Source of the DNA: a virus
Virus record (IMG/VR): IMGVR_UViG_3300027740_000183
Span: 73,152 to 137,151 of that record
Direction: 5' to 3' (one strand)
Length of the DNA: 64,000 bases
In this document: positions 1,004 through 34,634 of the stretch, in pieces
How positions within the stretch are numbered: position 1 is the first letter of the stretch
Layout: the number at the start of each line of letters is the position of its first letter
The notes under the pieces: generated by a model
Seen by the model: only the letters and a program-made list of their open reading frames with translations
Told to the model about the DNA's origin: nothing
The model's database searches: none
Program-made: the position numbers and the translations under genes

Positions 1004-1034
1004 TCACAATCTGTAAGGTGCTAGGATACCTTTT
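1004..1034 (-). promoter_or_regulatory. 31-nt 5'-leader repeat / putative pseudoknot, copy 1
   Basis: AAAAGGTATCCTAGCACCTTACAGATTGTGA, upstream of the ankyrin gene. Confidence 0.7.
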
Positions 1035-1068
1035 AATCCCTTTTACAATTTTTAATAATTTGTAACAA

Positions 1069-2186
1069 TTATTTCCTGCACTTTATTTCTTTTTCAATAG
1101 AAAAGCAAGCAAACCACTTATCGTTTTCTCGTTTAACGATTACAGATTTTATTTTTCCTTCAAAGGGGTTATGACTGCCTAATTTAATCCATCCTATTTT
1201 ATTTATCGTCACGAAGTAGTCTTTTAGCCTTACACGGAGTGCAAGGCATAAGCGGACTACCAAACTTGCTTAAAACGTACACTAACATAAAGTGTACCCC
1301 TCTGAGCACGGGTTGTGAGTAAAACCGTAAGCAAAGGTCTTACAGTCTTTCCTACTTCCTCTCGACCAGATATAGCTAGGTTTAACGGTACTTGCACCGA
1401 AACTCCTCTCATCTCTTTTAACAAGTACCCGTAGAGCAGTGGACTGAGGCGGCATCCATTGGTACCTAATTTCTAGCCTATCGTTTACTAGCGTTATCAT
1501 TATTACTAACTTATCCTTTCCCTAGTGGTCTGGTGAAGTAGCTTCCTACTCGCGTGTGGTAACACACGCTTTGGGAAGCCCCGAGATCTTTAGTCTCGGG
1601 GAGGCTTCACATACAGTTTATTTTTAGAGATATTCCAACTATCAGGATGTGGTATAGAAAAGCTGTCATAGCGATCCTTTCCTTTAAATCTAGGATACCC
1701 ACCTTTACCTTTGTTCTTAGTTATATATCTAAAAAAGTTTTGAAATGTTTTTTCTGCTTTAACAGGTATATTTCTAACAATTTGGCTGTCTACAGCACCA
1801 TATTCTTCCCAAATTTTATTAAATCCCTTTAGTTCTTTACATTGATCATATTTATTAATTTTAATTCCTTGTTTTCGGTAAGCATCTCTACGCTCTTGTA
1901 TGCAAGCATTATATAATTCTCTACATATGTTTAGTGTTTTATCTAGTTTTATTTTCTGTAATTCGTTAGGAAATAGAGGTAATTTAATTGTTCGTATAAC
2001 AGTTTTAGCTTTAGTTACACCTATAGTTTTTTCAATAAAAATAACGGTATTTATATACCAACTTGGTTTTTTACAAATTAGTTCATCGTGTTCCCCAAGC
2101 AAGGTGTCAATATTAGAAGAGGACCACCCACGATTTTGTAACTGTTTCCTGTTAAAATATACAGGTATTTTTTTAATTTTTGTCAT
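1069..2186 (-). pseudogene. tnpB: RuvC-less TnpB derivative (N-terminal extra domain + HTH_OrfB/WED-REC), interrupted by an IscB omegaRNA mini-element
   Basis: 1611-2186 encodes RTIKLPLFPN..Q...LDKTLNICRELYN...AFQNFF-like...GYPRFK; 1069-1206 encodes INKIGWIKL...EGKIKSVIVKRENDKWFACFS. Removing 1207-1610 gives in-frame KLY|INKIGW. The ORF stops before the RuvC-I GID motif. Confidence 0.8.
1207..1610 (-). mobile_element. Non-autonomous IscB element: omegaRNA/HEARO scaffold + PLMP stub
   Basis: Starts GTGAAGCCTCCCCGAGACTAAAGATCTCGGGG (IS200/605 end hairpin); contains omegaRNA-like ACCAGAC, GGATGCCGCCTCAGTCC..GCTCT and GTCGAG motifs; followed by ORF 1199-1288 MLVYVLSKFGSPLMPCTPCKAKRLLRDDK*; ATAAA lies immediately 3'. 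Confidence 0.85.
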
Positions 2187-2315
2187 GAATTAATAAACGC
2201 AATACTATTTTACAACTAACTCTCTAAAAAGTAAAAATTATTTGCAGATTTAATTGGTTTGCTTACCGTCTATACGGTAAAGGATTTCTTTAATGGGCAT
2301 TTTACTGCACTCTGT

Positions 2316-2897
2316 TTAATCTTTGTCTGGTGCATTTATCTCTAAAATTTTTGTTAAACTTTCTTCTATGTCCACCCCATCTATTTCATTACCCAAACAA
2401 GTCCAGCCGTCTATTTTTTCTCTAGCAAATAATTCTATACGAGGAAGATCTCCAACAAGCTGTACTATTTTTTCTCTAACCTCATTAGGTTTTTTCGAAT
2501 GTTTCTCAATTGGTGTATCAATTACAGAATGAATACCGGCATTTATTCGTCTAGGTTTACCTTTAGTGGCTAATAAACACAATTCTGAATTAGCACGAGT
2601 CCAATTCCCCATCCCCCAAAACCAGCTATTTGCTTTCTTGTTTCGTTTCACCCAAGTAAAAGCTACTGTTTTATATTCAAATCCCCATTTTTGTATTAAT
2701 GAAAAGCTTTCATTAAGTTTTGGCATTGTCGCCCAAAGAAATAGTATGCAATCTTTTTCCGTTATAGCAGAAATTGGTAATTTTTCTAACCAATCTTGGC
2801 TTTGGACTATATATTTACAACCTGCTCCTCGATTTCCCGCTAAAGCTTTATCTTTATAACTCCACGGGGGATCTGCGTATATAATATTATATTTCAT
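2316..2897 (-). CDS. MT-A70 family adenine methyltransferase
   Basis: IIYADPPW catalytic motif, LFLWAT, GFEYKT, HSKKP, RIELFAR. Confidence 0.92.
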   Translation of the reverse strand: MKYNIIYADPPWSYKDKALAGNRGAGCKYIVQSQDWLEKLPISAITEKDCILFLWATMPKLNESFSLIQKWGFEYKTVAFTWVKRNKKANSWFWGMGNWTRANSELCLLATKGKPRRINAGIHSVIDTPIEKHSKKPNEVREKIVQLVGDLPRIELFAREKIDGWTCLGNEIDGVDIEESLTKILEINAPDKD

Positions 2898-3152
2898 AAT
2901 TTATCTTTTATAGTCGACATTTCACCACACCCTATTTAATTTTCCTTTAGCACATTTATTTTTAAAATTTTGGTCATATGTTAATGGTACGTAATTTATA
3001 ATACTAAATAACCTAGTTATATTATACTTAGTTGAATCGTACTTAGTTGGTACGTACCTAAACTGCACAAATTCATCATAGTCAGGTAATTCTGTTGAAG
3101 TAGACAACTTGTTAGTGTAATTAGTTGATATTTTTAGTAGATAATTCATTAG

Positions 3153-3190
3153 CTCCTGAGGTAGGATTCGAACCTACAACCCATCGGTTA
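3153..3190 (-). pseudogene. 3' half of a tRNA (Asn-like); 5' half absent
   Basis: TAA CCGAT GGGTT GTAGG TTCGAAT CCTAC CTCAGGA G: perfect T arm and acceptor 3' strand. It begins at the HNH stop codon. Confidence 0.75.
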
Positions 3191-3565
3191 CTTTTTATGT
3201 TGGTAGTATACTTGATGGCTTCTACAACAAAAGAAATTTATTTGTCCATTCTTTTTACGAAAATTTACATTACGAGCATCTCGTCTAAAGATTACGCCAC
3301 ACCAAGCACAGGTTAACATTATTATTTCTGCAGGATGTTCTTTATTATGCTCAAGTGTATGTTGTGCCCATTCTTTTTCTTCTAAATTTTCAAATCTATC
3401 ATCAAATGTATTTTTATTTTTATGATGTATTACACACCTTTTACTAGCAATATTACCGGTATTTTTCCACCATACATAATGATGTTCAAATACATACTTA
3501 TTTCTATATTTTTTACCTGGATATTCTATAGGTGCTTTTATTAGGATATAATTGCCATTCTTCAT
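3188..3565 (-). CDS. HNH homing endonuclease (HNH_3 type) with C-terminal Zn finger
   Basis: YVFEHHYVW, VIHHKNKNTFDDRFENL, CAWCG...FCCRSH. Confidence 0.9.
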   Translation of the reverse strand: MKNGNYILIKAPIEYPGKKYRNKYVFEHHYVWWKNTGNIASKRCVIHHKNKNTFDDRFENLEEKEWAQHTLEHNKEHPAEIIMLTCAWCGVIFRRDARNVNFRKKNGQINFFCCRSHQVYYQHKK

Positions 3566-3587
3566 AATTTTACATAGCTTTTTCTCT

Positions 3588-3615
3588 ATTGTAACACTTC
3601 TAACAAATTTGTCAA
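3588..3615 (-). promoter_or_regulatory. sigma70-type promoter
   Basis: TTGACA-16 nt-TACAAT with extended TG, upstream of the HNH gene. Confidence 0.75.
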
Positions 3616-3616
3616 G

Positions 3617-4117
3617 CTAAATAATAGGTACAGGTATTGCTGCTCCTGGTGGAATAGTTACCAGAATTGTCCAACTTTGTAAGTAATTTGTTATAGCATC
3701 GGCTATTTGGTTCGCATTTTGATAATAAGCGGTTGCAGCAGTTCCTGCTAAAAAAATAGGCAACAAAGTTGCCGTTAGTGCTCCTGGTAAAGAGGTCCCA
3801 CCAGGTATAGGTGGTGGGGTAACGAATGGGGGTGGTACTATTATAAATAGAGTAGACAGTACCATTTGGGAACAAGCGGCTTCGAAAGCAGAAGCTGCTA
3901 TTTGTTCCGTACCTATTTTTCCTGGAGCTAATGGTGCGAACCCAGCATAGGTCGAGTTAGGAGGTACAACACAAGGAGTGGGATATCCAGTAACTACAGC
4001 ATTTTGCCATAACGTTTGGATCAAATCTCCAGTTTGAAAAATAGTAGATGTAGGTACAGGGCTTTTCCACAAATTTATCAACGCTTGTTTAAATACTGGT
4101 ATGTTTGGTGCAAGCAT
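3617..4117 (-). CDS. Hypothetical Pro/Ala-rich protein, possibly baseplate-associated
   Basis: 166-aa ORF downstream of the spike gene in the same operon; composition typical of virion proteins. Confidence 0.45.
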   Translation of the reverse strand: MLAPNIPVFKQALINLWKSPVPTSTIFQTGDLIQTLWQNAVVTGYPTPCVVPPNSTYAGFAPLAPGKIGTEQIAASAFEAACSQMVLSTLFIIVPPPFVTPPPIPGGTSLPGALTATLLPIFLAGTAATAYYQNANQIADAITNYLQSWTILVTIPPGAAIPVPII

Positions 4118-4119
4118 GG

Positions 4120-4449
4120 TTATAGGTTAAAAATATGTGCAATGATGGATTTAATAACATCTATTTGTTTCTTAGTTTTTTCTAAAAGCTCTTTGTCGTT
4201 ATTGTCTCTAGTGATGTTTTTGGTATTTTTTATTGTTTCAAGCATTGCTTTGTTGTAGGTATCTCTAAGTTTTGCTTTTTCTTCTTTAGATACACATGCT
4301 GCTTCTAATTTTCTATAGACTTTATAAAGTACATTATACACTGCTTTTTTGGTATTTTCACTTTTATCACTACCCGCATCTGTACTCATAACAACATCGG
4401 TAAATTGTCTTATTGTGTCGTACTCTTCTTTCGAGATAGGTGTAGGCTG
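4120..4449 (-). CDS. Hypothetical protein, tandem paralog of 4452-4793
   Basis: PISKEEYDTIRQFTD...YRKLEAACVSKEEK aligns with PISREEYARIHLLTD...YRKIESACIPREEK; start probably at MQPTP. Confidence 0.65.
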   Translation of the reverse strand, partial: QPTPISKEEYDTIRQFTDVVMSTDAGSDKSENTKKAVYNVLYKVYRKLEAACVSKEEKAKLRDTYNKAMLETIKNTKNITRDNNDKELLEKTKKQIDVIKSIIAHIFNL

Positions 4450-4451
4450 CA

Positions 4452-4793
4452 TTATTGTAATGAATTTATGTGTGTGATTAATACTCTTATGGAATCCACA
4501 CATTTTTCGGTTTCAAGAAATAGGTCTTTCTCCCAATTTTTCTCATCCATTATCTTTATTTTATCTATAACGTCATTCATCAAAGTGTTGAAATTAAACC
4601 TTACCTCGTCTTTTTCTTCCCTGGGGATACAAGCAGATTCTATTTTACGGTATGTGTTGTAAAGAAGATTGAAAATTGTATTTCTAATATCATTATCGTC
4701 TGCTTCCACAATACCAAATAAAATGATATCGGTAAGCAAGTGTATTCTTGCATACTCCTCTCTGCTTATGGGTTTGTACGGAGGAGAAAGCAT
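4452..4793 (-). CDS. Hypothetical protein, tandem paralog of 4120-4449
   Basis: See paralog; translationally coupled to neighbours. Confidence 0.65.
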   Translation of the reverse strand: MLSPPYKPISREEYARIHLLTDIILFGIVEADDNDIRNTIFNLLYNTYRKIESACIPREEKDEVRFNFNTLMNDVIDKIKIMDEKNWEKDLFLETEKCVDSIRVLITHINSLQ

Positions 4794-5281
4794 TATTTGG
4801 AAGAAAGTCCAGTACCAATTTTTATATATTTTTTGTTTTTGTGATGCTTAAAATTATAATATATAGCCTCAAATTCGTACAAATAATGAAATTCATTATT
4901 TACATAACTAATAGTAAGATTGAAAGAATTTCCGACCCATAGATATTTGTGTAAAAATTCTGGTATTTTCTTTATGCTAAGCCATGCTATTGCCTCTTCC
5001 CCTTCGGAAGAAACAGTATAAAGATGCAAATATCCGTCTTCTTCAATGGCTTCAATGAGGCACTCAAATGTTTCTTTAGCAATATTTTTACTAAACAGCG
5101 GTTGTAACTTGGGCACAGTAGCATCAAGATCTTTACCAACCATTTCCCAATCGTTTTCCGATGCTTTTTGATCCTCTGTTTCCACACCAAGCTCTTCTAG
5201 GCTAATTGGTGCAGGGCATATATTTAAAATACGACCCACTCCTTTTAAAAAGGATTTAAAATTTCTTTTAAAGTTCAGCAT
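4793..5281 (-). CDS. Hypothetical protein
   Basis: 162-aa ORF coupled (TAATG) to flanking genes. Confidence 0.55.
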   Translation of the reverse strand: MLNFKRNFKSFLKGVGRILNICPAPISLEELGVETEDQKASENDWEMVGKDLDATVPKLQPLFSKNIAKETFECLIEAIEEDGYLHLYTVSSEGEEAIAWLSIKKIPEFLHKYLWVGNSFNLTISYVNNEFHYLYEFEAIYYNFKHHKNKKYIKIGTGLSSK

Positions 5282-6501
5282 TACTTAACCATTCCCGTTT
5301 TACTAAGTATTGTAGGTAGCGTTGAAATATTTATTGGGGGAGAAGTTGTGCCTGTTGCAGAACTGTGGGTATGTGCAGTAAGCCATTTTATTAGATCTTC
5401 TCCACGAACTAAATGATTATCTGCTCCTTTCACTAACTTTACTGCTACCGTGTTCGCATTAAATAGTGGTCCTGTCACTTCCATCTTACCCAATATGTCA
5501 ATAACTACATTTCGTAACGCGGAAATTAACACGTCTTTGCCCACAGTTATATCAATACTAGTAGTGGGGAAATTACCTATAAAGCCTTTAGTCGCAGTAA
5601 TTGGCAAAGTTAACGTAACGTTACCATTTTCGTCCACTTCGGTAATTGTAGCTGTTTTTAACGTAGTTCCATATTTTACCCTACTTCTCAATGGATTCCC
5701 AGTCACATCGGAATTAAGTATTGTCCCATCGTCTCCAATAACATTACCTTCTCTACGATCTACAAGAGGAAATCCTGTCTTGTCTTTAAGAACCATTAAG
5801 TGTTCTTTAGCGTAGTCTACGTTACCTGTAGCACTAGCTACTGCAGCTCCTGCGGCGCCTCCAGCTGGCGCAACTTTGACGATGTCACTAATGGTAGGGT
5901 CTGTGACAACAGACTTAGACAGCGCGTTAGGACGTCTTACTACCCCAAACCTCTCTTCATCACCAACCTGCTGTCTCTTGTTCCCCATCACAGCTCTTAC
6001 ATGTGTGGGAGCCCTGCTCTGTGCCTCAAGGTCATAAGCCGATAGGGTTAAAGAGACAGATCCTCCACGAAGCTCTAAATTACCATTTTTGGAATAGAAA
6101 GAGCCCGCTATTCCGTTAGACATTATGTCTACTTCGCCTTCTTGTAACCTTCTTTGATAAAACTTGTCTTTTTCTGTGGCTTGTATTGCTGGTATATCTT
6201 TAGAGGAATCAAGAGATGGGTTTCTTAGATATGCTTGTATGTAAGGCTCTCCGTCTTCTCCTTTAGACCCCACTACGATGGTAGACATAGATTCTGGCAT
6301 CACCCTTATCCAACTATTTGGTCCTATATAAGGATGTGTAACCGGCATTACAGATCCACCAGAAGCACTTACATAATTTACCTTTTCTGTCGTGCCATCA
6401 GTACTGGTTATTATGGAGCTGGCAGACTTGTGGGCAAGGTAATCCCCCTTGCCCCTAGAATCCGCTACACGAGTTTTAATTGAACCTGGTGATCTTGGCA
6501 T
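5281..6501 (-). CDS. Baseplate central spike protein (gp5/gpV-like)
   Basis: N-terminal OB-fold-like region, beta-strand-rich C-terminus ending in the HxH metal-binding tip motif LTAHTHSSATG. Confidence 0.7.
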   Translation of the reverse strand: MPRSPGSIKTRVADSRGKGDYLAHKSASSIITSTDGTTEKVNYVSASGGSVMPVTHPYIGPNSWIRVMPESMSTIVVGSKGEDGEPYIQAYLRNPSLDSSKDIPAIQATEKDKFYQRRLQEGEVDIMSNGIAGSFYSKNGNLELRGGSVSLTLSAYDLEAQSRAPTHVRAVMGNKRQQVGDEERFGVVRRPNALSKSVVTDPTISDIVKVAPAGGAAGAAVASATGNVDYAKEHLMVLKDKTGFPLVDRREGNVIGDDGTILNSDVTGNPLRSRVKYGTTLKTATITEVDENGNVTLTLPITATKGFIGNFPTTSIDITVGKDVLISALRNVVIDILGKMEVTGPLFNANTVAVKLVKGADNHLVRGEDLIKWLTAHTHSSATGTTSPPINISTLPTILSKTGMVK

Positions 6502-6515
6502 TTAATGTCCGTCCG

Positions 6516-6546
6516 TCCCAGTCTATAAGGTGTTGGGATACCTTTT
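6516..6546 (-). promoter_or_regulatory. 31-nt 5'-leader repeat / putative pseudoknot, copy 2
   Basis: AAAAGGTATCCCAACACCTTATAGACTGGGA, 5 nt after the -10 box of promoter 6552-6579 and 14 nt before the spike ATG. Confidence 0.75.
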
Positions 6547-6551
6547 AATTT

Positions 6552-6579
6552 ATTTTACAACTTTTTTAAAAATTGTCAA
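6552..6579 (-). promoter_or_regulatory. sigma70-type promoter
   Basis: TTGACA-16 nt-TAAAAT. Confidence 0.75.
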
Positions 6580-6596
6580 CCTATTTTTGAAGCCAG

Positions 6597-6667
6597 ACCC
6601 CGGAGTGGGGATTGCACCCACTTAACAAACATACGATTTTGCCGTCCTACTAATAGACGATCCGGGG
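6597..6667 (-). tRNA. Atypical tRNA-like element, 8-nt anticodon loop, identity undetermined
   Basis: Acceptor CCCCGGA/TCCGGGG, D stem GTCT/GGAC, anticodon stem GCAAA/TTTGT with loop ATCGTATG, T arm GTGGG-TGCAATC-CCCAC; D loop lacks GG. Confidence 0.6.
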
Positions 6668-22199: not shown

Positions 22200-23477
22200 C
22201 TACACTTTAGTTAAGGCAGTACTGTCCGATTCTTCGTTGTACACAAAAACAGGTTCGCCTTCGCGCTCTATCACGTCAGCAGTAATAATTATTTCTTTCA
22301 CACCTTTTTTGGTGTAACTGGGCGCGTTGTACATGAGATCTAACATTGCTCTTTCTATAATGGAACGTAACCCTCTAGCACCGTTTCCTTTAGCTAACGC
22401 TTTATCCGCAATAGTACTAAGGGCATCTTCTTGCCACGTTAGTACCAAATTATTCATTTTAAATAACTTAGCATACTGTTTAGTTAGCGAATTTTTGGGC
22501 TCTACCAATATTTTTAGTAGAGATTCTTTGTCCAAGTTATGAAGTGTAGCTGTTACAGGAATACGTCCTACGAACTCAGGGATAAGACCAGCCATAATAA
22601 GATCTTCTGGCTCCACTTCTTTCACTATTTCACCAGCATTTTTATTTTTATACTTAGAGTCTGTAACGGCTCCAAAGCCAATTCGTTTTGACTCCGTTTT
22701 TCGCTCCGTTATCACTTTAGCTAAGGAAGTAAAGGCACCTCCACAAATAAATAAAATATGAGAAGTGTTTACTTTTACAAATTCTTGATTTGGATTTCTG
22801 CGCCCATGTTTTGGCGACACATTAATAGTGGATCCTTCAAGAATCTTTAGTAGCCCTTGCTGAACACCCTCGCCTCCAACATCACGAGTTGTTGAAGTAT
22901 TGCCGTTTTTCTTAACAATTTTATCAATTTCGTCAATGTAGATAATACCTTTTTCAGCTAACTTAACATCAAACTCTGCATTTTGAAGTAAATTGGTAAC
23001 TATTGACTCCACGTCTTCACCAACGTAACCTGCCTCAGTAAGTGCAGTAGCATCACTCATTGATAGCGGCACTTTCAAAATTTTAGCAAGAGTTTGAACC
23101 AGTAACGTTTTACCAGTACCTGTGGGACCAAGCATGAGCACATTACTTTTTTGAATCTCTATACCATCATCAGCATTAGACTCAATTCTACGATAATGGT
23201 TATAAACAGCTACGGATAAAATCTTTTTGGCAAATTCTTGCCCAATAACATGTTCATCAAGTTGTTTTTTAATCTCGTCAGGTGTAGGTAATTCGGTATA
23301 TTTGTCTACATTGTTCTTCTCTGTATCCTTTAGTATCATGTCATAGCAGGTCTCGATACATTCGTTGCATGCGTATGCCGACTCCCCTAATATTTTTTGT
23401 CCCTCGATTAGTCTAGCAACTGCTGCTTGCGATTTACCACAAAAAGAACATTTTATAGCCATACTATTATTCAGCAC
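22200..23477 (-). CDS. clpX: ATP-dependent Clp protease ATP-binding subunit ClpX
   Basis: CSFCGK zinc finger, GPTGTGKT, TEAGYVGEDVE, IDEIDK, ILFICGGAF, IGF loop, GARGLR. Confidence 0.97.
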   Translation of the reverse strand: MLNNSMAIKCSFCGKSQAAVARLIEGQKILGESAYACNECIETCYDMILKDTEKNNVDKYTELPTPDEIKKQLDEHVIGQEFAKKILSVAVYNHYRRIESNADDGIEIQKSNVLMLGPTGTGKTLLVQTLAKILKVPLSMSDATALTEAGYVGEDVESIVTNLLQNAEFDVKLAEKGIIYIDEIDKIVKKNGNTSTTRDVGGEGVQQGLLKILEGSTINVSPKHGRRNPNQEFVKVNTSHILFICGGAFTSLAKVITERKTESKRIGFGAVTDSKYKNKNAGEIVKEVEPEDLIMAGLIPEFVGRIPVTATLHNLDKESLLKILVEPKNSLTKQYAKLFKMNNLVLTWQEDALSTIADKALAKGNGARGLRSIIERAMLDLMYNAPSYTKKGVKEIIITADVIEREGEPVFVYNEESDSTALTKV

Positions 23478-23533
23478 TCCATTAGTTAAAGTTTAAACTG
23501 CGCTCTAACATCACTGTCTTAGTTATTTTTTAG

Positions 23534-23564
23534 CCACAATCTATAAGGTGTTGGGATACCTTTT
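23534..23564 (-). promoter_or_regulatory. 31-nt 5'-leader repeat / putative pseudoknot, copy 3
   Basis: AAAAGGTATCCCAACACCTTATAGATTGTGG, upstream of clpX. Confidence 0.7.
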
Positions 23565-23836
23565 AATCTTCTTTTACAACATTTTGGTAACTTTGCTAAC
23601 TATTTTCACAAACGATTGCCTAATTTTTGAGTCAGGATTCCAAAAAACGTCAACTAAAAAATACAAAAATATACCGGTACCTACAGCTAACAAGGTGGAG
23701 TACAGATCTGTGGTAGCAGTAATCGTATTTCTTATCGGGCCATGAAACATGGAGCAAACTATCTCCCGTTGGTGATGTATAGAACAAAAGTGACAACACA
23801 CATAAAAATTATCAATGTAATTAACATACTATTTCT

Positions 23837-25373
23837 CCGTTATACAAATACTTAACAAAATCTATTGTTAAACATCTGTTTTGAAGCTGTGCAGAGATCA
23901 GTTGATTCCTCTACAGTAAGCTTCTGGCTGTGCGGTTCCAGCGCATTGTTTGGGTTAATGTTTAAAAATCCTTGAGAACAGTCCTGGTTAGAATTTCTTC
24001 TTTTCCAGTATAGTGCTTCAAGCATTTCCTTCACTTCTGATGTAGTATTACTTAGTGTTATTACTAAAGCAGTACCAACTTGTTTTACCTTAGAACGTCT
24101 AAGCAAATTAACACCTCCTACCACATCAGCATGAATTGTTCTGCCGCAAGAGCGGCACTTAAACTTTATTCCTACACGGTTACGTCTATTTACATACCCA
24201 CAACTAGGGCATATTTGAGACGTGTAAGCAGGGTTTACTTTTTCTACAACAGCCTTAGAGGACAACGCATTGATTAAAGCAAGGTAACAAAATCTTTTCT
24301 GTCCTTTAGTACCAGATAAGTCTAAATCCTCTACAACAAACACTGTGTTAGGATGTTTTTTAACTAATTTGTTGGCAATGTTACCTACTACTGTTTTTAA
24401 AAATCCTGTTAAGTTTTCTTCTAACGTGGCAACTCTACCACTATCTTCTACTAAACCTTGTCGCTGCCTGTTGGATCTTATCTCTTTAATTTTGCTGTAC
24501 TTCTCATCAAAAATAGGTTTGGTGTCTTTACCATACAGAGTACCTTCACTTGTGGCAGCTATTACATTTAAACCAACATCTATTCCTAAGTAGGCGCAGT
24601 CTTCAGAAGGTTCTTGAATCTCCCATTCTTTCTTATCTACTACCTCGAAACGCCACACCCCTTTTCTAGTTTTCCGTGCTAAAATACCTTTACTCACATC
24701 TTGTAATGATTTTACTAAAGGATTATTAGATAAAGGCAGTTGTATTCTACCAGCACCCGATTTAAGCCAAGAAAAAGCTAACCAATTTTTGGTAATTTTG
24801 GTAGATTCTGACTCACTCATAATACCTGTATTAATAGACATTCTCATTCCAACTCGATTGGTAATAGTAGGCTTTTTACCACTAATACTCTCATCCAATA
24901 GTAATTTCCAGTAAAAATCTAAATGTTCTTGGCTAACATTTTTAGTAGAAACTTGTACTGAGTATTTACCAATCGTGTAGAGTATTTTTGCAATATCTTT
25001 ACTAAAAGTACCTTCCTTTACTTGTTTGCTAATGTACTTTTTAATCCGTTGGTTATACTTGTTGGAAGCCCAACTAGTAACTTTTTCTATAGCATGTTGC
25101 TGACAGTTTTTAGCTATTTGACTGCTGAGAATTTCTGAAGTTGGAAAGAACACCCTGCTTTCAGTCCCTTTCTTTACTGAAAACTTACGAGCAGACAGAA
25201 GAACATCAACACAACTTTGTAAATAAGCAGTGTACTGATCCTGCAACAAATTTAGTTCTTCTACTTTACCCTTGTTGGTTTCTTTAAGTAGGAAGAAAAA
25301 ACGACTCTTTATCATAACATTTTTCTTTTACAACTATTTACTAATGATTTTCCAATTATGTATAAATCAATCC
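23837..25373 (-). mobile_element. Non-autonomous IS607-like element, copy 1
   Basis: Homology with copy 2 ends exactly at ...GTATTTGTATAACGG (GG core typical of IS607); left boundary approximate. Confidence 0.7.
23852..25315 (-). CDS. tnpB: TnpB RNA-guided nuclease (IS607-type)
   Basis: RuvC-I LGIDVG, RuvC-II FVVEDL, NPAYTSQICPSCG..CRSCG Zn finger, RuvC-III HADVVG. Confidence 0.9.
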   Translation of the reverse strand: MIKSRFFFLLKETNKGKVEELNLLQDQYTAYLQSCVDVLLSARKFSVKKGTESRVFFPTSEILSSQIAKNCQQHAIEKVTSWASNKYNQRIKKYISKQVKEGTFSKDIAKILYTIGKYSVQVSTKNVSQEHLDFYWKLLLDESISGKKPTITNRVGMRMSINTGIMSESESTKITKNWLAFSWLKSGAGRIQLPLSNNPLVKSLQDVSKGILARKTRKGVWRFEVVDKKEWEIQEPSEDCAYLGIDVGLNVIAATSEGTLYGKDTKPIFDEKYSKIKEIRSNRQRQGLVEDSGRVATLEENLTGFLKTVVGNIANKLVKKHPNTVFVVEDLDLSGTKGQKRFCYLALINALSSKAVVEKVNPAYTSQICPSCGYVNRRNRVGIKFKCRSCGRTIHADVVGGVNLLRRSKVKQVGTALVITLSNTTSEVKEMLEALYWKRRNSNQDCSQGFLNINPNNALEPHSQKLTVEESTDLCTASKQMFNNRFC

Positions 25374-26253: not shown

Positions 26254-26286
26254 ATTTTCTCTCCTGTGCAAGCGGAATGAATCGCG

Positions 26287-27510
26287 TTAACTGATCCATT
26301 TTAATGTTTTTTGGTGATAACACCAATTAACATTTTTAGTATTAAAATCTAAAATATTATCATCATCTTTAACTCTTATAGCTTTGCCTCTACTGTGTAT
26401 ACCCACAACAACATATTTTTTGTTATTACCTTTAAATTTAACTAAATCCTCAGGTCTAGTTGAATACCTTTTCGTTCTAACTGAATGTGCATAACCTTTC
26501 CTGTTTTTCTGTAAAACTCTGTTATTTTTACGTTTTTGTTTAATCTCTACTGGGTCTGATCTTTTTTGATCCGCTCCACCTGCTATTACAAAAGCGTCAT
26601 TATAATGTGTTTTTTCTAATCGTAATGAATTTCTTACAATGTTAGTGATGTAACCAAAGGTAGTTTTAATTCCAGATAAATCTTCTTTAAACCTGTTCCT
26701 GACAATACTCATCCATGTCTCTGCTTTATATTGTTTATTGTGCTTTAACTTACTAAAATCTTTTTTCTTATGTAACTTATTATGACACTTCTCGTGTAGT
26801 AGTGCTAAATTGTTTGGCTTATTTGTGCCTTTAGGTTTAGGAATAATGTGGTGGATATGACTAGAGTTACCAGCACTAAACTTTTTACCACAATACTGAC
26901 AACGACCGTGCTCTCTTGCAAATAGGTATGACCTCATATTTTGGTAATCATAGAGGGGTCCTTGTTGGTATTCAATTCCCTGTATTTCAGGATTATTGAT
27001 TTTTTGAATATCAAAAGACGCGGTTTCAATGACTATTTCTGTTATAGGGTACCAAGCACAGAGTTTACGAATAAAATTCAAAATAGATTGATACCGTCTT
27101 CTAACTGAGGGTGGTAACCAACCTTTAGGTATTGATCTGTTGTCAAATCTAGATTCTCTGTACCAAAGTTTATTACGTCTAGTTCTTCTGTACTTAGATC
27201 TGCTTTCCAATCTCTCCTTTGTCCCATTATCTAACTCTAAAGTGCCACACACTAATTCTCTACTGCTACTTACCACACTGAACCCGTTCCATCTGTACCC
27301 AACATCTATACCTAACACTAACCTATCTATTGTTTCTCCTGTAGCTATCTTCAACTTGATCACAAATGGGTACAAACTAATTACTACTGCTTTGCCTTCT
27401 TTCAATAATTTCCTAGCTACTCTACGCCGACAAGGCATCAATGGCTTACCCCTCATGTTAACCACGGGGACTCTCAAGCCCCGTCTGTTATCACTAACAG
27501 GTAAATCCAC
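26287..27510 (-). CDS. iscB: IscB RNA-guided nuclease, catalytically intact
   Basis: PLMP, RuvC-I LGIDVG, Arg-rich bridge helix RRTRRNK, WLPPS, RuvC-II IETASFD, HNH (CQYC..HIHH..NL..CH), RuvC-III HYNDA. Confidence 0.95.
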   Translation of the reverse strand: MDLPVSDNRRGLRVPVVNMRGKPLMPCRRRVARKLLKEGKAVVISLYPFVIKLKIATGETIDRLVLGIDVGYRWNGFSVVSSSRELVCGTLELDNGTKERLESRSKYRRTRRNKLWYRESRFDNRSIPKGWLPPSVRRRYQSILNFIRKLCAWYPITEIVIETASFDIQKINNPEIQGIEYQQGPLYDYQNMRSYLFAREHGRCQYCGKKFSAGNSSHIHHIIPKPKGTNKPNNLALLHEKCHNKLHKKKDFSKLKHNKQYKAETWMSIVRNRFKEDLSGIKTTFGYITNIVRNSLRLEKTHYNDAFVIAGGADQKRSDPVEIKQKRKNNRVLQKNRKGYAHSVRTKRYSTRPEDLVKFKGNNKKYVVVGIHSRGKAIRVKDDDNILDFNTKNVNWCYHQKTLKWIS

Positions 27511-27761
27511 TTCGAGGTTGTTAACAATCCGTTCGTTCTTCTTAGAACTTTCGTTTTTCTCAAAACTGCACTGATCACTGAGACTTTGATCTCTGTTTAA
27601 ACCAGTACTTGTAGAGCAAAGGACTTGTGGAGCATCCTTTGGTACGTTCTTTAACTTTGTTGTTACTAACTAGCCCTCTAATCAACTATTGGGTTAGTAT
27701 TGCTACCAACCTTATCTCGTAATCACTTACAAGCCCACGACTTTAGTCGTGGGTAATTGAC
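27511..27761 (-). ncRNA. IscB omegaRNA (HEARO) scaffold
   Basis: Begins GTCAATTACCCACGACTAAAGTCGTGGGCTTG; contains GGATGCTCCACAAGTCC..GCTCT and TTAAACAG motifs; directly upstream of iscB. Confidence 0.9.
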
Positions 27762-27785
27762 TCTAATCCACTGAACTACGCAAAA
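27762..27785 (-). pseudogene. 5' fragment of a tRNA interrupted by the IscB element (equals the predicted guide)
   Basis: TTTTGCG TA GTTC AGTGGATTA GA; possible 3' remnant CCGCT TGCACAG G at 26263-26275. Confidence 0.5.
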
Positions 27786-27882
27786 TTAAAAAATAATTAA
27801 AAATTTTATTTTTACCCACAACTTATTTCTGTTTTTTCTCGGAACAATTTCTGCAAGGTTCCGCCACAACAGCTTCTAACGC

Positions 27883-27919
27883 TATCAGGGATGTGCTTTA
27901 CCAACTGAGCTACTCGCAT
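27883..27919 (-). pseudogene. 5' half of tRNA-Ile(GAT)
   Basis: ATGCGAG TA GCTC AGTTGGTA AAGC A CATCC CT GAT A, then unrelated sequence. Confidence 0.65.
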
Positions 27920-27944
27920 TCAATGTTTTCTATATTTACTACAG

Positions 27945-28018
27945 CGAACCCAGAAGGACTCGAACCTTCCACCTACAGCTTAGAAGGCTGTCGCTCTTTC
28001 CAGATGAGCTATGGGTTC
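27945..28018 (-). tRNA. tRNA-Arg(TCT)
   Basis: GAACCCA/TGGGTTC acceptor, GCTC/GAGC D arm, ACAGC-CTTCTAA-GCTGT anticodon arm, GAAGG-TTCGAGT-CCTTC T arm; no encoded CCA. Confidence 0.95.
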
Positions 28019-28035
28019 ATATGACAACAAAATAG

Positions 28036-28245
28036 CTACTTCTTCTCAGAACAATTACTACAGGGCTCCACCACAACAGCTTCTATTGCTTCTATCTCGT
28101 CTAATGAGGATCCGTAAACTAATCTAAGCTCTTTTAGAATGTCCTCTCCAGCTTCTTTGATGACTATTGTATTAAATCTTACCGCATTTAAAGTAGCTCC
28201 GCAAGAGCAACCTAGCAAAAGAACTCTTTTTCCTACATTTTCCAT
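28036..28245 (-). CDS. Small Zn-binding hypothetical protein
   Basis: CSCG...PCSNC; AAGGAG RBS. Confidence 0.55.
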   Translation of the reverse strand: MENVGKRVLLLGCSCGATLNAVRFNTIVIKEAGEDILKELRLVYGSSLDEIEAIEAVVVEPCSNCSEKK

Positions 28246-28269
28246 GGTTTAGATATCTCCTTATATCGA

Positions 28270-28491
28270 CTAAGGAACTAGTGTTGATTTCAAATTTTCT
28301 GGAACTTCTACTAATCTATATTGTTTACCCTCTAACACAACAAATGCGCATTTTAAAAATAATTCTTTTTCGCGCTTTATGTCTTCTTCTTGTATATAGT
28401 TTAATAAATGAATTTTATCTAGCTCTTTGTTTTCTTTTTTAGTCAATAACTCTCTATTACAAAAAACAATAACACTTTGTTCTTTAAACAT
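28270..28491 (-). CDS. Hypothetical protein
   Basis: AAGGAG RBS upstream. Confidence 0.5.
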   Translation of the reverse strand: MFKEQSVIVFCNRELLTKKENKELDKIHLLNYIQEEDIKREKELFLKCAFVVLEGKQYRLVEVPENLKSTLVP

Positions 28492-28507
28492 ACAATTTAC
28501 TCCTTAC

Positions 28508-28943
28508 GATCTCCGTAGTGAGAAAGCCCACCCATTTATGGGTGGGATGAATCGCGTTAACTGATCCATTATAGTGTTTTTCATTACCTTATTGTTAATA
28601 AATGAAGAGTTTTTGATCCTTGAACTCTTCAAAACAAGTTTACCTGGCTTTCCAGTAACTGGGACTCGCAAGCCCAGTCTACTATTACTAGTAGGTAAAT
28701 CCACTTCGAGGTTGTTATTAGTCCGTACTTTGTCTTGATCACTGAGACTTTGGTCTCTGTTTAAACCAAGGCTTGTAGAGCTACAGGCTTGTGGAGCACC
28801 TGTAGGTACGTTCTTTAACTTTGCTAATAACTTCTGCATGGTTGTTTCCAACTAGCCCTCTAATCAACTATTGGATTAGTATTTCTACCTCACCTATCTC
28901 GTAATCACTTACAAGCCCACGACTTTAGTCGTGGGTAATTGAC
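28508..28943 (-). mobile_element. Internally deleted IscB element (omegaRNA + both ends)
   Basis: omegaRNA nearly identical to 27511-27761, decayed PLMP start (GLRVPV), iscB 3' tail (AATGGATCAGTTAACGCGATTCAT) and end hairpin CCCACCCATAAATGGGTGGG; GTAAG follows. Confidence 0.85.
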
Positions 28944-29623: not shown

Positions 29624-29664
29624 AATTTTCTATTTATATTTTACAATTTTTATGTTCCAGAGTA

Positions 29665-29674
29665 GTTAAATAAC
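29665..29674 (-). promoter_or_regulatory. Putative late promoter GTTATTTAAC
   Basis: Near-identical to the motif before structural genes. Confidence 0.5.
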
Positions 29675-29754
29675 GAGCTAACTGTTAACAAAAATATATC
29701 AAATTTACCTATTTTTTACTTATTTTAGTAATAAACTATAGTGATCCTAACTAC

Positions 29755-30549: not shown

Positions 30550-30828
30550 TATGACTACTTTTTAACCAGTTCTATTTTACCGATATACAACGCTTTGACT
30601 AGTGGGAAAAAGTCTTGGTTATGATCATCGGATCCATACCATACCCACACCTCTTCTCCATTATGAAGCAATTTACGCTCGATAGTATAACGAAGATGAT
30701 AGTCTCCATCACTACAAGTATCTTCTTCCCAAGCCACTATTCGGTATTTTGGTGTACCGTCTCCAAAATCCCCATATTCTGCTACAACCTTCATAACTAC
30801 TCCATACTGCACAAAAATAATAATCAGT

Positions 30829-31542
30829 CTAATTCAAAAACTTCTTAGTAGCAAACATAACATTATCTGTTAAATTGACATCATCTTTTTGTAGCTCTTG
30901 CTTAACATTAAAAGATTGACTGTTTACTAAAAAAGAATTTAGCAGTTCTTTACTTTTTTTAGTGTCTTCATGTAGTACTTCTTCTAATACACTAGTCAGA
31001 TAGGTGGAATTTGATAAAGTACCCATAGAAATGTAATAATCTAAGGAATTACGAAAATCTAAAATTTCTTTGGTTTTTTCAAAAGCTAAATCAACAATAC
31101 CTTTTAATGCCTTTCTCTGTGATCCACTTACTTTATGAAATAATCTAGTAATTGGAATGCTCCCTTTAATAAGAATTGCTTTTACTTTTTCTACCTCCTC
31201 AACGGGCAAAGAAACCTCTTCTTTCTGTGAAGTCACATAAGAATAATGACCATCATTCCAAATTTTAGGGCTACACAATTGCCCATAATTTTCCATAACA
31301 ATTATCCAATTAAAAAAATTTCCATTAACTAAATTAGGAGGAGTAGTAGATACTCTTATAGCTCCCCCATCACTAGGAATAAACACAAAACCAGCAGGTA
31401 TCTCTAAAGTGTCAGAAATTACAGAACTAAGTATTTCTTTTAAAATTTTATCAATTGTTTTATCTGTAACTATACAATCCGTTGATGTAATGATAAAAAT
31501 AATAGATGGATCATCTTTAATTTGTTTGTTTTTCTTTGCCAT
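30829..31542 (-). CDS. Hypothetical protein
   Basis: 237-aa ORF. Confidence 0.5.
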   Translation of the reverse strand: MAKKNKQIKDDPSIIFIITSTDCIVTDKTIDKILKEILSSVISDTLEIPAGFVFIPSDGGAIRVSTTPPNLVNGNFFNWIIVMENYGQLCSPKIWNDGHYSYVTSQKEEVSLPVEEVEKVKAILIKGSIPITRLFHKVSGSQRKALKGIVDLAFEKTKEILDFRNSLDYYISMGTLSNSTYLTSVLEEVLHEDTKKSKELLNSFLVNSQSFNVKQELQKDDVNLTDNVMFATKKFLN

Positions 31543-31575
31543 TTTATTCTTTTTTTACTTTTAAGTCTTATATAC

Positions 31576-32025
31576 CTACTTATATTTTAAAAATTGTAAT
31601 GCAACATTAACTGCTTTATTCACACTACTCCAAAAATCTTCTGTGTCTTTGTCATCAACTGATTTTTTCAACTTCCATAAATCATAATCAGTCTTTACCG
31701 CATGCTCCGCGCAACGACGATAACCCATATCTTTCTTTTTTATACTTAAAATAACAGAATTTATGGCTTTTTCACGATCCCTAAAACCCCTTACTTCGTG
31801 TTTAATTACTCGTGTAAGACCTAAATTAATTAAATTTCTAGCCTCTGTTTCCCAGTGTTGAATCCATTTAGTTTTACCCTCTTTTCTAGCAAGTCTGGCT
31901 TTGTAAAATCCAAGCAAAGCACCACTTATATACTCTTCAACCTTATCTTTAAAAGTTTCCCTGTTATAAGCCATAGCTAAAATAAGCCGCTGTACGCTTT
32001 CTTCTATGTATTTTTCACTTTTCAT
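31576..32025 (-). CDS. Hypothetical protein
   Basis: 149-aa helical ORF. Confidence 0.5.
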   Translation of the reverse strand: MKSEKYIEESVQRLILAMAYNRETFKDKVEEYISGALLGFYKARLARKEGKTKWIQHWETEARNLINLGLTRVIKHEVRGFRDREKAINSVILSIKKKDMGYRRCAEHAVKTDYDLWKLKKSVDDKDTEDFWSSVNKAVNVALQFLKYK

Positions 32026-32037
32026 ATTAAATTATTT

Positions 32038-32358
32038 CTATCCCAAAGTTTTATGTTTCTCATGAATGCTTTCCATACCATCATAATTGTGAATTTCCCA
32101 TTCTATATCATCTGGTATTTCTATAACATAAAGATCAGCACAAGCACCGCTAGCTTTCTCCTCACCTATTTCTTCTACCGCTTTTACTAAACATTCATTA
32201 GAACGATAAGCCTTGCAATTATTTGACTTTATGTATAAATCCTCATTACATAAATAACCAAAACCATCCCATACCAAACCAAGTGCATCGTATACCTTTT
32301 TAGATACACTAAAACCACCGTAACACTTATTTATAACTATTTTCATAACATTCTCCAT
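32038..32358 (-). CDS. Conserved phage hypothetical protein
   Basis: KIVINKCYGGFSVS...LVKAVEE.G..ASG..A.L.V.EIPDD.EW.I.NYDG.E, a pattern widespread in phages. Confidence 0.7.
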   Translation of the reverse strand: MENVMKIVINKCYGGFSVSKKVYDALGLVWDGFGYLCNEDLYIKSNNCKAYRSNECLVKAVEEIGEEKASGACADLYVIEIPDDIEWEIHNYDGMESIHEKHKTLG

Positions 32359-32368
32359 TTCTTCCTAT

Positions 32369-32396
32369 ATTATAACACACCCTTAAAACCTGTCAA
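32369..32396 (-). promoter_or_regulatory. sigma70-type promoter
   Basis: TTGACA-16 nt-TATAAT with TG extension. Confidence 0.8.
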
Positions 32397-32397
32397 C

Positions 32398-33162
32398 CTA
32401 TTTCGAACTAAAATTTGGACTAAAACAAATTGGAGCAAGTTTGCAGTGATACTCTTCCTTACCTTCAACCATACTTCCACATATACCTTCTGGACACACA
32501 CCCTCCGCTATCAACAAATCCCCCTCTTTCTTTGCTTTTATCTGTTCTTCCAGCATATTTGTAATTGCATCATACTCAAACACTTTATATTTTCTTGGAT
32601 TATCTCTGCTTATGTAAAGCATTGTTACTTTATTAAGATCCATCCCGTACTGTTCGTTCAGAGCGGAAACATAGCTAGAGGCTTGGCAAGCCCACTCAAT
32701 AAAAACAGCCTCTTTCATCTTATCCAATAAACTAGCACTTTTTGTCTTTATCTCTAACACACTTTTACTTATAGGTATTACACCATCTACAAAGCCACTC
32801 ATACCAAAAAGATCACGACTAATCTCTAATTCCTTGTAATGCATTGGTACATCACAACTAGGGCACATTTGAGGGCCTACCCCAAAGTGTACTGTATACT
32901 TACACTTCTCACATTCCCAATGACCATACAACAATCCTGCTAACCCAAGATAATTTTGAACCACTTTATGTATTGCAACACCCTGTGTGGTATAAAACTC
33001 GGAATAAAAATTCCAAGAATCCGTTATAGTATCCCCATATTTCTTGATAAGAAAGTGCTCTTTACCACAATAAGGAAAATCAGAGGCACGAAAAGACGCC
33101 TTGAAAGGGATTAAATATTCTTTACTAAACGCTTCGTTTATCGCTTTTGTGATAGTACTCAT
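32398..33162 (-). CDS. Cas4-like PD-(D/E)XK exonuclease with Zn-ribbon insert
   Basis: C..., G.AIH, G.VDG, LEIKT, Q..SY, C-terminal C...C..C cluster; start MSTITK. Confidence 0.8.
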   Translation of the reverse strand: MSTITKAINEAFSKEYLIPFKASFRASDFPYCGKEHFLIKKYGDTITDSWNFYSEFYTTQGVAIHKVVQNYLGLAGLLYGHWECEKCKYTVHFGVGPQMCPSCDVPMHYKELEISRDLFGMSGFVDGVIPISKSVLEIKTKSASLLDKMKEAVFIEWACQASSYVSALNEQYGMDLNKVTMLYISRDNPRKYKVFEYDAITNMLEEQIKAKKEGDLLIAEGVCPEGICGSMVEGKEEYHCKLAPICFSPNFSSK

Positions 33163-33410
33163 TTTCCTGGGATGTCTGATTCCACCGGTGCGTCTGCTTC
33201 TACTTTGGCAAACTTGTAAACATCTTTTATGAAAGCATGTTGAAATTCCCCTTTTGAAGAGGCCAGGCAAAAAGACCAGAAAATTTGTTCAGGTACTTCA
33301 GAATAGAGATACAGAAATTTTCCTTTGAATTTAATACTAAGTGTTTTAGTTTCTCTACAATACCAAAATTGCTCGATCGTTGCTGCTTTTGGCGTCGCTA
33401 ATGTTAACAT
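33159..33410 (-). CDS. KTSC domain protein
   Basis: L.I.F.G..Y.Y..VP...F..F..A.SKG.F...IK. Confidence 0.85.
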   Translation of the reverse strand: MLTLATPKAATIEQFWYCRETKTLSIKFKGKFLYLYSEVPEQIFWSFCLASSKGEFQHAFIKDVYKFAKVEADAPVESDIPGK

Positions 33411-33429
33411 TTTAATTCTCCTTATATAG

Positions 33430-33460
33430 TCCAAGTCTGTAAGGTACTGGGATACCTTTT
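33430..33460 (-). promoter_or_regulatory. 31-nt 5'-leader repeat / putative pseudoknot, copy 4
   Basis: AAAAGGTATCCCAGTACCTTACAGACTTGGA, upstream of the KTSC RBS. Confidence 0.7.
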
Positions 33461-33475
33461 AATTTATCCTTATTT

Positions 33476-33781
33476 TTAAAACAAAAACACTACATGATAT
33501 AAAATAAGCAAAAAATATAACAAACACATGATGACCATGCAAACTTTTGAAAATGTGTACTTACGTAATCTAAGCAGCAAAAAAGAGCCTAATAACACTA
33601 AAACTACTTTAACTACTAAAAATAAAGCAACACTTCGCATCAATAAAACAAACATTAAAGGGTTTAACTCATAAGCGTCACCACTTCGTACTTTCCATGT
33701 AGTAAAGGAAGCATCTAAAATATTTAGAGCATTTAAAAATACAAACAGGAAAACAAAATATCTGTTAATCCATTTTAGCAT
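33476..33781 (-). CDS. DUF5658-like membrane protein
   Basis: LNILDA.FT...G.A.ELNPLM, three hydrophobic helices. Confidence 0.7.
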   Translation of the reverse strand: MLKWINRYFVFLFVFLNALNILDASFTTWKVRSGDAYELNPLMFVLLMRSVALFLVVKVVLVLLGSFLLLRLRKYTFSKVCMVIMCLLYFLLILYHVVFLF

Positions 33782-33796
33782 GGGATGATCGGTGGG

Positions 33797-33827
33797 TCCC
33801 AGTCTATAAGGTGCTGGGATACCTTTT
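33797..33827 (-). promoter_or_regulatory. 31-nt 5'-leader repeat / putative pseudoknot, copy 5
   Basis: AAAAGGTATCCCAGCACCTTATAGACTGGGA. Confidence 0.75.
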
Positions 33828-34054
33828 ACAATAATCTTAAGTAACCTTCCTCAGCTTGTGGATCCTGCAGTACTATCAATTCTTTAGTTATTGCAACGGC
33901 GCCAAAATCACCTTCCAAATAAAAACTAGCCTGGTACTTTCTAAGAATTCCGAAGTAGTTATCATATGTAGCAAACAGCCCAAATAAATTACGCGCTAAT
34001 TTTTTAACACAAACTCTATGCCCAACAAACTGCTCTAGTGTATCAAAATCCATC

Positions 34055-34579
34055 TTATTTCTCACAACTGGCTGCACCAGTACCGTAAACATTTTCTGAC
34101 GCTTCTGTATAAATCACTTTTTCTTCACTAATATTTATATTGAATAGCTTGTAACCAATTTTTATAATAGCAAAATTATTCATTTGCGCCACTACTTTAA
34201 TATCTTTTGGTTCAAGAGGAACAAGAGCCCCAAAATCTACAACAGAAGAATCCGTAATATTTAAAAATGCCCCTTTGCACTTATAAGTATTTATATTTCC
34301 ATATTTATTACAAGATACTTGATAAACTGTGGTAGTAGAAAAATATTTAGTTTTTCCCTTACCCAAATACTTCTGATAGTCCACATCTAGAGCAACATGC
34401 AAAATTATAGAATTATTTTCTACCAAACAGGTAGGAACTACCACAATATCTTCGCCATAAGGGTTATTGAAAATCTCACCCTCTATGTAGGGAATTTTAA
34501 CATCTTGCGCTTGTGCCTCTAAGGTACCTACAAATAATGACACAACTATGCTAAACAACACAAATATATTTTTCATCAA
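34055..34579 (-). CDS. Secreted hypothetical protein
   Basis: Signal peptide ending in AQA. Confidence 0.55.
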   Translation of the reverse strand: MMKNIFVLFSIVVSLFVGTLEAQAQDVKIPYIEGEIFNNPYGEDIVVVPTCLVENNSIILHVALDVDYQKYLGKGKTKYFSTTTVYQVSCNKYGNINTYKCKGAFLNITDSSVVDFGALVPLEPKDIKVVAQMNNFAIIKIGYKLFNINISEEKVIYTEASENVYGTGAASCEK

Positions 34580-34603
34580 TTAATTCCTTTCTTTATGTTT
34601 AAG

Positions 34604-34634
34604 TCCCAATCTATAAGGTGTTGGGATACCTTTT
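34604..34634 (-). promoter_or_regulatory. 31-nt 5'-leader repeat / putative pseudoknot, copy 6
   Basis: AAAAGGTATCCCAACACCTTATAGATTGGGA, downstream of promoter 34688-34715. Confidence 0.75.

Follow-up and report, generated by a model that had tools for sequence, protein, structure and literature searches.

The 64,000-nt window analysed here, which comprises the last 64 kb (positions 73,152 to 137,151) of the linear 137,151-nt virus record IMGVR_UViG_3300027740_000183, contains six copies of a short motif that an earlier note, made from the letters alone, had described as a 31-nt leader element. We found that this motif is the core of a 36-nt repeat, which is present in at least 16 copies in the record of this large soil phage, mostly at gene starts. 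The repeat is a CRISPR direct repeat, a conclusion in which we have high confidence since the same sequence forms a mini-array elsewhere in the genome. The CheckV completeness of the record is 35%, and genome-wide counts refer to this part only; relatives identified by their capsid proteins (~70% identity) have sizes of 388-424 kb. One soil metagenome run contains 0.99 of the words sampled from the record and is a possible source of it.

The six window copies are all exact matches to the degenerate 31-mer, for which no match was obtained in 100 shuffles, and all are located on the minus strand, a detail that the note did not give. The unit length and the copy number had both been underestimated: a genome-wide scan identified 15 copies of the 36-nt unit at no more than 4 mismatches plus one at 8 mismatches, and three of these 16 are part of the regularly spaced mini-array. 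A metagenome scan yielded two contigs of a different phage, hereafter the second phage, with four additional copies. A model built from the copies recovered the 16, by construction, as well as the four in the second phage, and no indels were observed across the 20 copies.

The mini-array is located at ~53460-53690 of the record (C1), outside the window and directly before the major capsid gene. It consists of three identical 36-nt repeats (GTATAAAAGGTATCCCAACACCTTATAGATTGGGAC, GT...AC) and a 5' partial one, with unique spacers of 36, 37 and 36 nt, as in a CRISPR array. The same 36 nt, 5' end included, make up window copy 6. Two repeat pairs were found elsewhere in the genome, one (52373/52446) separated by a 37-nt spacer with internal repeats and the other (18202/18282) by 44 nt containing a promoter-like motif. 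The sequences at 52405-52441 and 63105-63141, each of which follows a repeat, are short tandem duplications of 11-nt and 15-nt units, unlike acquired spacers. No protospacer for the array spacers was detected in the co-occurring second phage or the other sequences searched; the best match, 17 of 20 positions of spacer 3 in the second phage, is within chance and lacks a TTN flank.

We also examined the sequences on either side of the copies (Table 1). As the note had claimed, a TTGACA-16-TAAAAT site is located 5 nt before copy 2. The motif TTGTAAAA precedes copies 1-3 and six copies outside the window and is a general promoter-like element of the phage, so that transcripts would begin at about the first bases of the repeat. 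It was rejected as a CRISPR leader, as it also precedes a tRNA-like gene, both TnpB genes, an IscB end and near-leaderless ATG codons. Transcripts starting at the first bases of the repeat would be consistent with the pattern of conservation, since positions 1-3 are variable in the lone copies (conserved in 3-9 of 17) while positions 4-12 are kept (14-17 of 17), with A12 invariant among the distinct copies. The full 5' end is retained in copy 6 and in the second repeat of the 52373 pair, both of which lie within longer predicted transcripts. Sites of the TTGACA-16-TAAGAT type are not enriched (7 here as compared to 6.2 in shuffles).

Every copy examined shares its strand with the neighbouring promoter or gene. 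In the two phages together, 14 of 20 copies lead a gene, and in 10 of these 14 a Shine-Dalgarno (SD)-like motif or an ATG is found no more than 20 nt downstream of the repeat. There are also two copies without a led gene. The downstream genes named in the note were recovered in part: the ankyrin-repeat gene followed by bS21, ClpX, KTSC and DUF5658 by Pfam, and the Cas4-like gene by PHROG. The putative baseplate spike had no match in Pfam or PHROG and the putative secreted protein none in Pfam. Copy 5 overlaps the stop codon of an upstream 88-amino-acid (aa) open reading frame (ORF). Directly upstream of copy 2 is a tRNA-like gene (6596-6667, minus strand) with an 8-base-type anticodon call and a TTGACA/TTGTAAAAT promoter-like site of its own, and a similar stretch is present in the second phage (locus L122).

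Table 1. Repeat copies, promoter-like sites and repeat-led genes in the window (window coordinates).
Feature	Position	Strand	Remarks
Ankyrin-repeat gene	368..958	-	led by copy 1, then bS21 (47-331); Pfam
Repeat copy 1	1003..1038	-	solitary, 36 nt, 3' end decayed; ankyrin ATG at +45
TTGTAAAA promoter-like (-10 region) motif	1041..1048	-	before copy 1
406-aa gene, no family match	5281..6501	-	led by copy 2
GGAC-GGAC run	6507..6514	-	directly follows copy 2; possible target site for GGAC guides; flanked by CTG instead of TTN
Repeat copy 2	6515..6550	-	solitary; ATG at +14
TTGACA-16-TAAAAT promoter-like site	6552..6579	-	before copy 2
clpX	22200..23477	-	led by copy 3; Pfam
Repeat copy 3	23533..23568	-	solitary, 3' end decayed; precedes clpX
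TTGTAAAA promoter-like motif	23572..23579	-	before copy 3
Cas4-like gene	32398-33270	-	after copy-4-led KTSC gene; PHROG
Repeat copy 4	33429..33464	-	solitary; SD-like at +6, ATG at +19 (KTSC gene)
DUF5658 gene	33476-33781	-	led by copy 5; Pfam
Repeat copy 5	33796..33831	-	solitary; perfect stem 2, G18-C30 form; ATG at +15
Repeat copy 6	34603..34638	-	solitary; SD-like at +14, ATG at +27
TTGACA-16-TAAGAT promoter-like site	34688..34715	-	~50 nt before copy 6

The note had proposed that the motif folds into a covarying H-type pseudoknot. Such a fold is possible, and when the repeat was shuffled 200,000 times, its perfect geometry of 5 plus 6 base pairs arose only 24 times. The support claimed from sequence variation was less robust. 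All six window copies have the same stem 1, as stated, but it varies across the 17 distinct rows of the alignment, in which 96.5% of its cells are paired. The statement that copies other than 5 and 6 keep five of the six pairs of stem 2 holds only if G-U pairs are counted; the Watson-Crick pairs are 3, 5, 4 and 5 of 6 in copies 1-4. The compensatory change at pair 18:30, which copy 2 breaks, yielded p=1.0 in the six copies and p=0.057 in the 17 rows, the latter being the best value among 66 column pairs. This pair alone changes repeatedly on both sides (AU 7, GC 6, GU 2, other 2). Overall, 90.4% of the cells pair in the 17 rows as compared to 89.3% in shuffles, a level reached by 65 of 500. 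All three variants at 19/29 convert a C.A mismatch to a Watson-Crick pair. Covariation is thus no proof of the fold, and the H-type pseudoknot is probably real judging from the geometry and from its agreement with a known structure. In line with the note, an Rfam search gave no family match at the gathering score, and neither the copies nor the array scored above chance; in the window it identified two HEARO RNAs and one tRNA only.

The probable structural counterpart to the repeat is the guide scaffold of Cas12m (type V-M, also V-U1). In the solved Cas12m2 scaffold, as described in PMC10442227, the 36-nt repeat has 7 disordered nt at its 5' end, a flipped-out A, a 6-bp pseudoknot to G(-8)..G(-3) and a G:A(-2) pair; G(-8) to G(-3), A(-2) and C(-1) are read base-specifically, and the protein holds a 17-bp heteroduplex. 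For GoCas12m, a repeat fragment of ~30 nt is described as folded into a triplex and a pseudoknot, with no trans-activating CRISPR RNA (tracrRNA; PMC11013384). For comparison of the folds, we retrieved the repeats of the Cas12m loci of Meiothermus, phage Rctr197k and Pelobacter; two of the five loci (Manganitrophus and Mycobacterium) had no recurring repeat and were left out. The controls were 23 repeats ending in GATTGAGAC, after one locus in which the repeat was protein-coding had been dropped. The same register, with the 5' strand of the pseudoknot at position 14 and stem 11:20, was obtained for 16 of the 17 distinct copies, the Rctr197k repeats and the Pelobacter repeat. The register score of the phage repeat was reached by 41 of 20,000 shuffles and by a single control, in a different register.

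By sequence fit, the phage repeat thus has the type V-M arrangement of a stem and a pseudoknot to -8..-3 followed by A(-2) and C(-1). It shares with the type V-M CRISPR RNA (crRNA) scaffold a length of 36 nt ending in GAC, a dispensable 5' end, the stem with a flipped A and pseudoknot abutting the spacer, and the lack of a tracrRNA, as no anti-repeat of 12 nt or more was found in the 35%-complete record. It differs by a U:A in place of the G:A pair and, in 14 of 17 copies, by a C.A mismatch at the base of the pseudoknot. We consider it probable that the repeat belongs to a Cas12m-like scaffold class. The note's idea of an undescribed fold or riboswitch is not upheld, since the register is that of a Cas12m crRNA scaffold; its placement of an RNA-level leader element at about +1, before unrelated genes, agrees with our data.

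Outside this phage, the repeat was only found in the second phage, where three of the four copies are located behind the same promoter-like motif. Amino acid identity between the two phages is 38-53% in the shared non-transposon genes. The flanks of the second phage are loose ends in soil metagenome run X1, which means that the phages co-occur and do not provide independent support for the habitat. Searches of IMG/VR gave no match for a 30-mer, and 117 matches for a 14-mer in 37 of 64 parts, none of which extended past 25 of the 36 positions; one 22-mer match without the 3' end was judged to be due to chance. One search for relatives each with the 406-aa protein and the capsid protein gave no match. 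Three related records (G006, G007 and G010) each have a multi-copy promoter-like motif of their own before genes, with up to 25 exact 16-mers in G010. The second phage encodes a translational GTPase, TypA/BipA, above the NCBIfam cut-off (L122:16937-18772), and the phage studied here encodes bS21.

We searched for candidate effectors with Pfam on 176 ORFs, leaving out two that cross locus borders, with NCBIfam and PADLOC on subsets, and with a Cas12u1 profile. Together these scans revealed only the Cas4-like nuclease, IscB and the TnpBs, and the sole Cas12u1 profile matches were the zinc-finger ends of two TnpBs (E~5e-6). The phage's own TnpBs were rejected as the effector: they are two insertion sequence (IS)-type copies, 87% identical, whose shared 3' end lies ~16 nt beyond the stop codon and ~270 nt short of copy 3. 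These TnpB-family genes (23852-25315 and 39074-40528, minus strand) encode 487 and 484 aa and start at an ATG ~10-18 nt after TTGTAAAA, which makes them near-leaderless. A third TnpB (1069-2186, minus strand), in two pieces of 198 and 64 aa that are ~330 nt apart, is situated directly upstream of copy 1. The IscB gene region (26287-28943, minus strand) includes the HEARO RNAs at 27501-27761 and 28695-28943 with a tRNA-Arg gene between them, and further IscB remnants are present elsewhere in the phage and in the second phage. In the complete 392-kb relative G007, an array of 5-6 repeats is located beside a gene for a 464-aa Cas12f/V-U3-like protein (L238:10290-12385), which shows that type V systems occur in this lineage; by eye, the first RuvC motif of this protein apparently has His for Asp.

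Host candidates were examined as well. A Cas12u1 search of 401 genomes of one phylum gave no match, not even in the controls, and is uninformative. A BLAST search with the array as query against 301 genomes from one phylum gave only 18-24-nt matches at chance level. For a host array, a degenerate 30-mer had no match in the GTDB representatives, and the 39 plus 6 GTDB matches to a paired 3'-end pattern were all protein or simple repeats on inspection. When 15 contigs of run X1 were aligned to the array, none of the 8 pieces and 6 loose ends listed indicated a host array. ClpX is 54-58% identical to homologs in many phyla and bS21 had one match, neither of which is informative about the host. 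Two other genes were noted during these scans, one for a protein with a Tad3 (Thoeris inhibitor) domain (L002:2087-2872; Pfam E 1e-25) and a second, divergent HK97-fold major-capsid-like gene (L004:2235-3131).

Taken together, we tentatively propose that repeat-led transcripts are loaded by a predicted Cas12m-like effector with consequences for the led messages, a reading to which we give slightly less than an even chance. Transcription from the upstream promoter-like sites would produce messages that begin with the repeat, which would then fold. The effector, presumably encoded by the host or by the ~65% of the genome that is missing, would load such a transcript and cover the ribosome-binding site or the start codon, blocking initiation; in 10 of the 14 gene-leading copies, the SD-like motif or ATG is situated within the first 20 nt, the stretch that Cas12m holds as a guide. 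The 5' end of a loaded message would become a guide or a decoy, or be trimmed. The led genes would be repressed or processed at their 5' ends while free effector is present, and the 16 or more copies would titrate it. That Cas12m can load guides embedded in coding transcripts is described for engineered E. coli (bioRxiv 10.64898/2026.10.26.761838). A regulon-like use of the repeat is plausible, and a cis effect on the led messages is possible, if somewhat doubtful. The likely binder would be a type V effector and not one of the note's candidates, bS21 and KTSC; the note's idea of a translational operator survives in altered form.

Several observations weigh against this proposal. A six-frame search with the Cas12u1 profile detected no cas12m in the 137-kb record; the neighbours of the array are two small ORFs and the major capsid gene, with no adjoining cas12m, and 10 capsid-related records gave no strong Cas12u1 match (best E 2e-9). 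The array repeat in G007 is unrelated to the repeat studied here. Position 13, which is G in all eight Cas12m repeats compared by eye, is U in 14 of the 17 distinct copies and never G, so the G:A(-2) pair is absent. Sequence identity to the Cas12m repeats, 14-18 of 36 positions, does not exceed that to the controls (12-19), and the register scorer, which is anchored at the 3' end, was written after the data were seen. Covariation tests on the whole structure fall short of significance, as the observed values are equalled by 32 to 215 of 500 shuffles, and the copies are not independent of each other. Changes in the stems are biased towards C>T over G>A (9 vs 0, p=0.004; 11 vs 3, p=0.057 when the most decayed copy is included); this bias speaks for the proposal, yet transcription-linked mutation could account for it. 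The 3' ends of copies 1, 3, g18282 and g65040 are decayed. In the second phage, the ortholog of only one repeat-led gene could be tested, and it is not preceded by a repeat.

The proposal can be extended by the extra GGAC-type units that follow 5 of the 20 copies, in both phages. The two longest runs follow copies that lead no gene (the array end and genome position 45364) and precede hairpin-plus-T tracts. The guides predicted from them match the repeat end at an offset of one unit, with the TTG of the repeat itself in front: the array-end guide has an 11-nt seed and an 18/20 match to the shifted repeat end, and the 45364 guide has a 12-nt seed and also matches window copy 2, with a CTG flank. 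Cas12m is described as using a TTN protospacer-adjacent motif (PAM) and as mismatch-intolerant over the first 11 nt (bioRxiv 10.64898/2026.10.26.761838). The phage may have a gene regulon based on a DNA-binding Cas12m-like protein, in which repeat-led mRNAs would be bound and then silenced or processed, and in which GGAC self-guides would block transcription of their own guide units through the TTG PAM in the repeat. We consider this combined version unlikely. The GGAC match is not independent evidence, because slippage duplication of the last four bases yields it automatically and explains it equally well.

Other explanations account for part of the data. The copies could be pure decoys, that is RNA anti-CRISPRs (Racrs), in which lone repeats on strong promoters absorb a Cas12m-like effector of the host and the genes are bystanders. 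The copies are solitary, intergenic, behind promoter-like sites and without cas genes, as in the definition of solitary repeat units (SRUs), and Racrs against a type V-A system are described in the same source (PMC10651486). The led genes are unrelated, the link between repeat and gene is lost in the one ortholog tested, and a repeat common to two co-occurring phages is expected for a shared host system. Yet no host array was found in the GTDB representatives, genomes or sample contigs searched, the occurrence of the same repeat in an array with spacers suggests that an effector is used rather than inhibited, and a decoy needs no tight coupling to start codons, which is what we observed; we judge this explanation to be improbable, while not negligible. 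Somewhat weaker still is the case for largely neutral dispersal, in which recombination or the effector or adaptation machinery would copy repeats to promoters where they decay, with the GGAC units due to slippage. A decay series that reaches 8 mismatches, a genome rich in IS200/IS605 elements and the fact that neither 15 capsid-related loci nor 10 related records contain the repeat would fit such a process, but it does not predict that the copies are all co-oriented with the neighbouring promoter or gene, that indels are lacking, that changes favour pairs which keep the fold, or that the placement is the same in the second phage.

A class 1, type III-like repeat was also considered, for which a host Cas6 would cleave upstream of the last 8 nt, and the mRNA that follows would serve as a non-targeting crRNA for Csm/Cmr. 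The argument rests on the shared end GATTG(G/A)GAC: repeats of 36-37 nt ending in GATTGAGAC, which have 8 of the 9 final bases in common with the phage repeat, were identified in 24 of the 401 genomes of one phylum, and in 3 of the 6 genomes that were inspected they adjoin type III genes. The spacers of the array are rich in T, and spacer 3, when read as its reverse complement, resembles a ribosome-binding site followed by ATG, although three spacers are too few for an argument about the strand. In the GATTGAGAC-ending repeats, the handle is preceded by a G-rich hairpin, and they do not conform to the register of the phage repeat, in which the last 8 nt differ in 11 of 17 non-array copies; we hold a type III origin to be quite unlikely. 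Least probable of all is the view of the earlier note, a non-CRISPR element in the form of a stand-alone cis-regulatory pseudoknot (an operator for bS21 or KTSC, a riboswitch or an exonuclease shield) or of a double-stranded DNA operator at +1. The position at about +1, the pseudoknot potential and the lack of an Rfam match agree with it; it leaves unexplained why the same sequence is found in an array with unique 36-37-nt spacers, why two copies lead no gene and why the register matches Cas12m scaffolds.

What sets the repeat apart is a putative Cas12m-type scaffold fused to the 5' ends of at least 10 genes, among them clpX, KTSC/Cas4-like and ankyrin/bS21, in a third of one genome, and the recurrence of this fusion in the second phage. 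It points to an unseen effector that would read a scaffold in which U:A replaces the conserved G:A pair. If a Cas12m-like protein acts on the messages, CRISPR machinery would serve in phage gene regulation as a natural counterpart of synthetic Cas12m circuits. If the self-guides are real, the repeat would carry its own PAM and target, breaking the usual rule that repeats hold no PAM-flanked target. In the literature within reach, which did not include subscription papers and preprint supplements, we found no description of Cas12m repeats that occur in multiple copies at the 5' ends of mRNAs.

The autoregulatory pseudoknot of T4 gene 32 is likewise of the H-type and located in a 5' leader, but concerns a single gene without an array or CRISPR features. 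Lone viral repeats are known as anti-CRISPR decoys, with one or a few copies per genome. The viral SRUs and Racrs, of which those tested as described in PMC10651486 are of types I-C, I-E, I-F and V-A, resemble the lone copies in that they are intergenic, located behind a promoter and without cas genes; here, at least 16 copies are found in a third of one genome, at mRNA 5' ends and along with a spacer array, and no matching host repeat was found in the GTDB representatives or sample contigs. The mini-array is short, cas-less and virus-borne like those covered in a review (PMC11656645). The crRNA-like regulatory RNAs tracr-L and CreA also combine a repeat with a short partial guide, for which repression of a promoter has been proposed, but they are described as located in cas loci with cas or toxin promoters as targets (bioRxiv 10.1101/2023.03.03.530964), whereas the candidate GGAC guides would target repeat ends. 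A phage-encoded Cas12m locus with Cas12m-type repeats is described in myxophage MV-1, with no adaptation genes reported (bioRxiv 10.64898/2026.09.14.751636). In phage Rctr197k (KX853510, 110754-114219), we identified an unannotated Cas12m homolog ("similar to transposase") beside an array of ~20 repeats and no dispersed copies, as all 18 pattern matches are in or next to the array. The phage studied here differs from such type V-M loci in that its array has no effector gene beside it and in that most copies of the repeat stand alone and lead genes.

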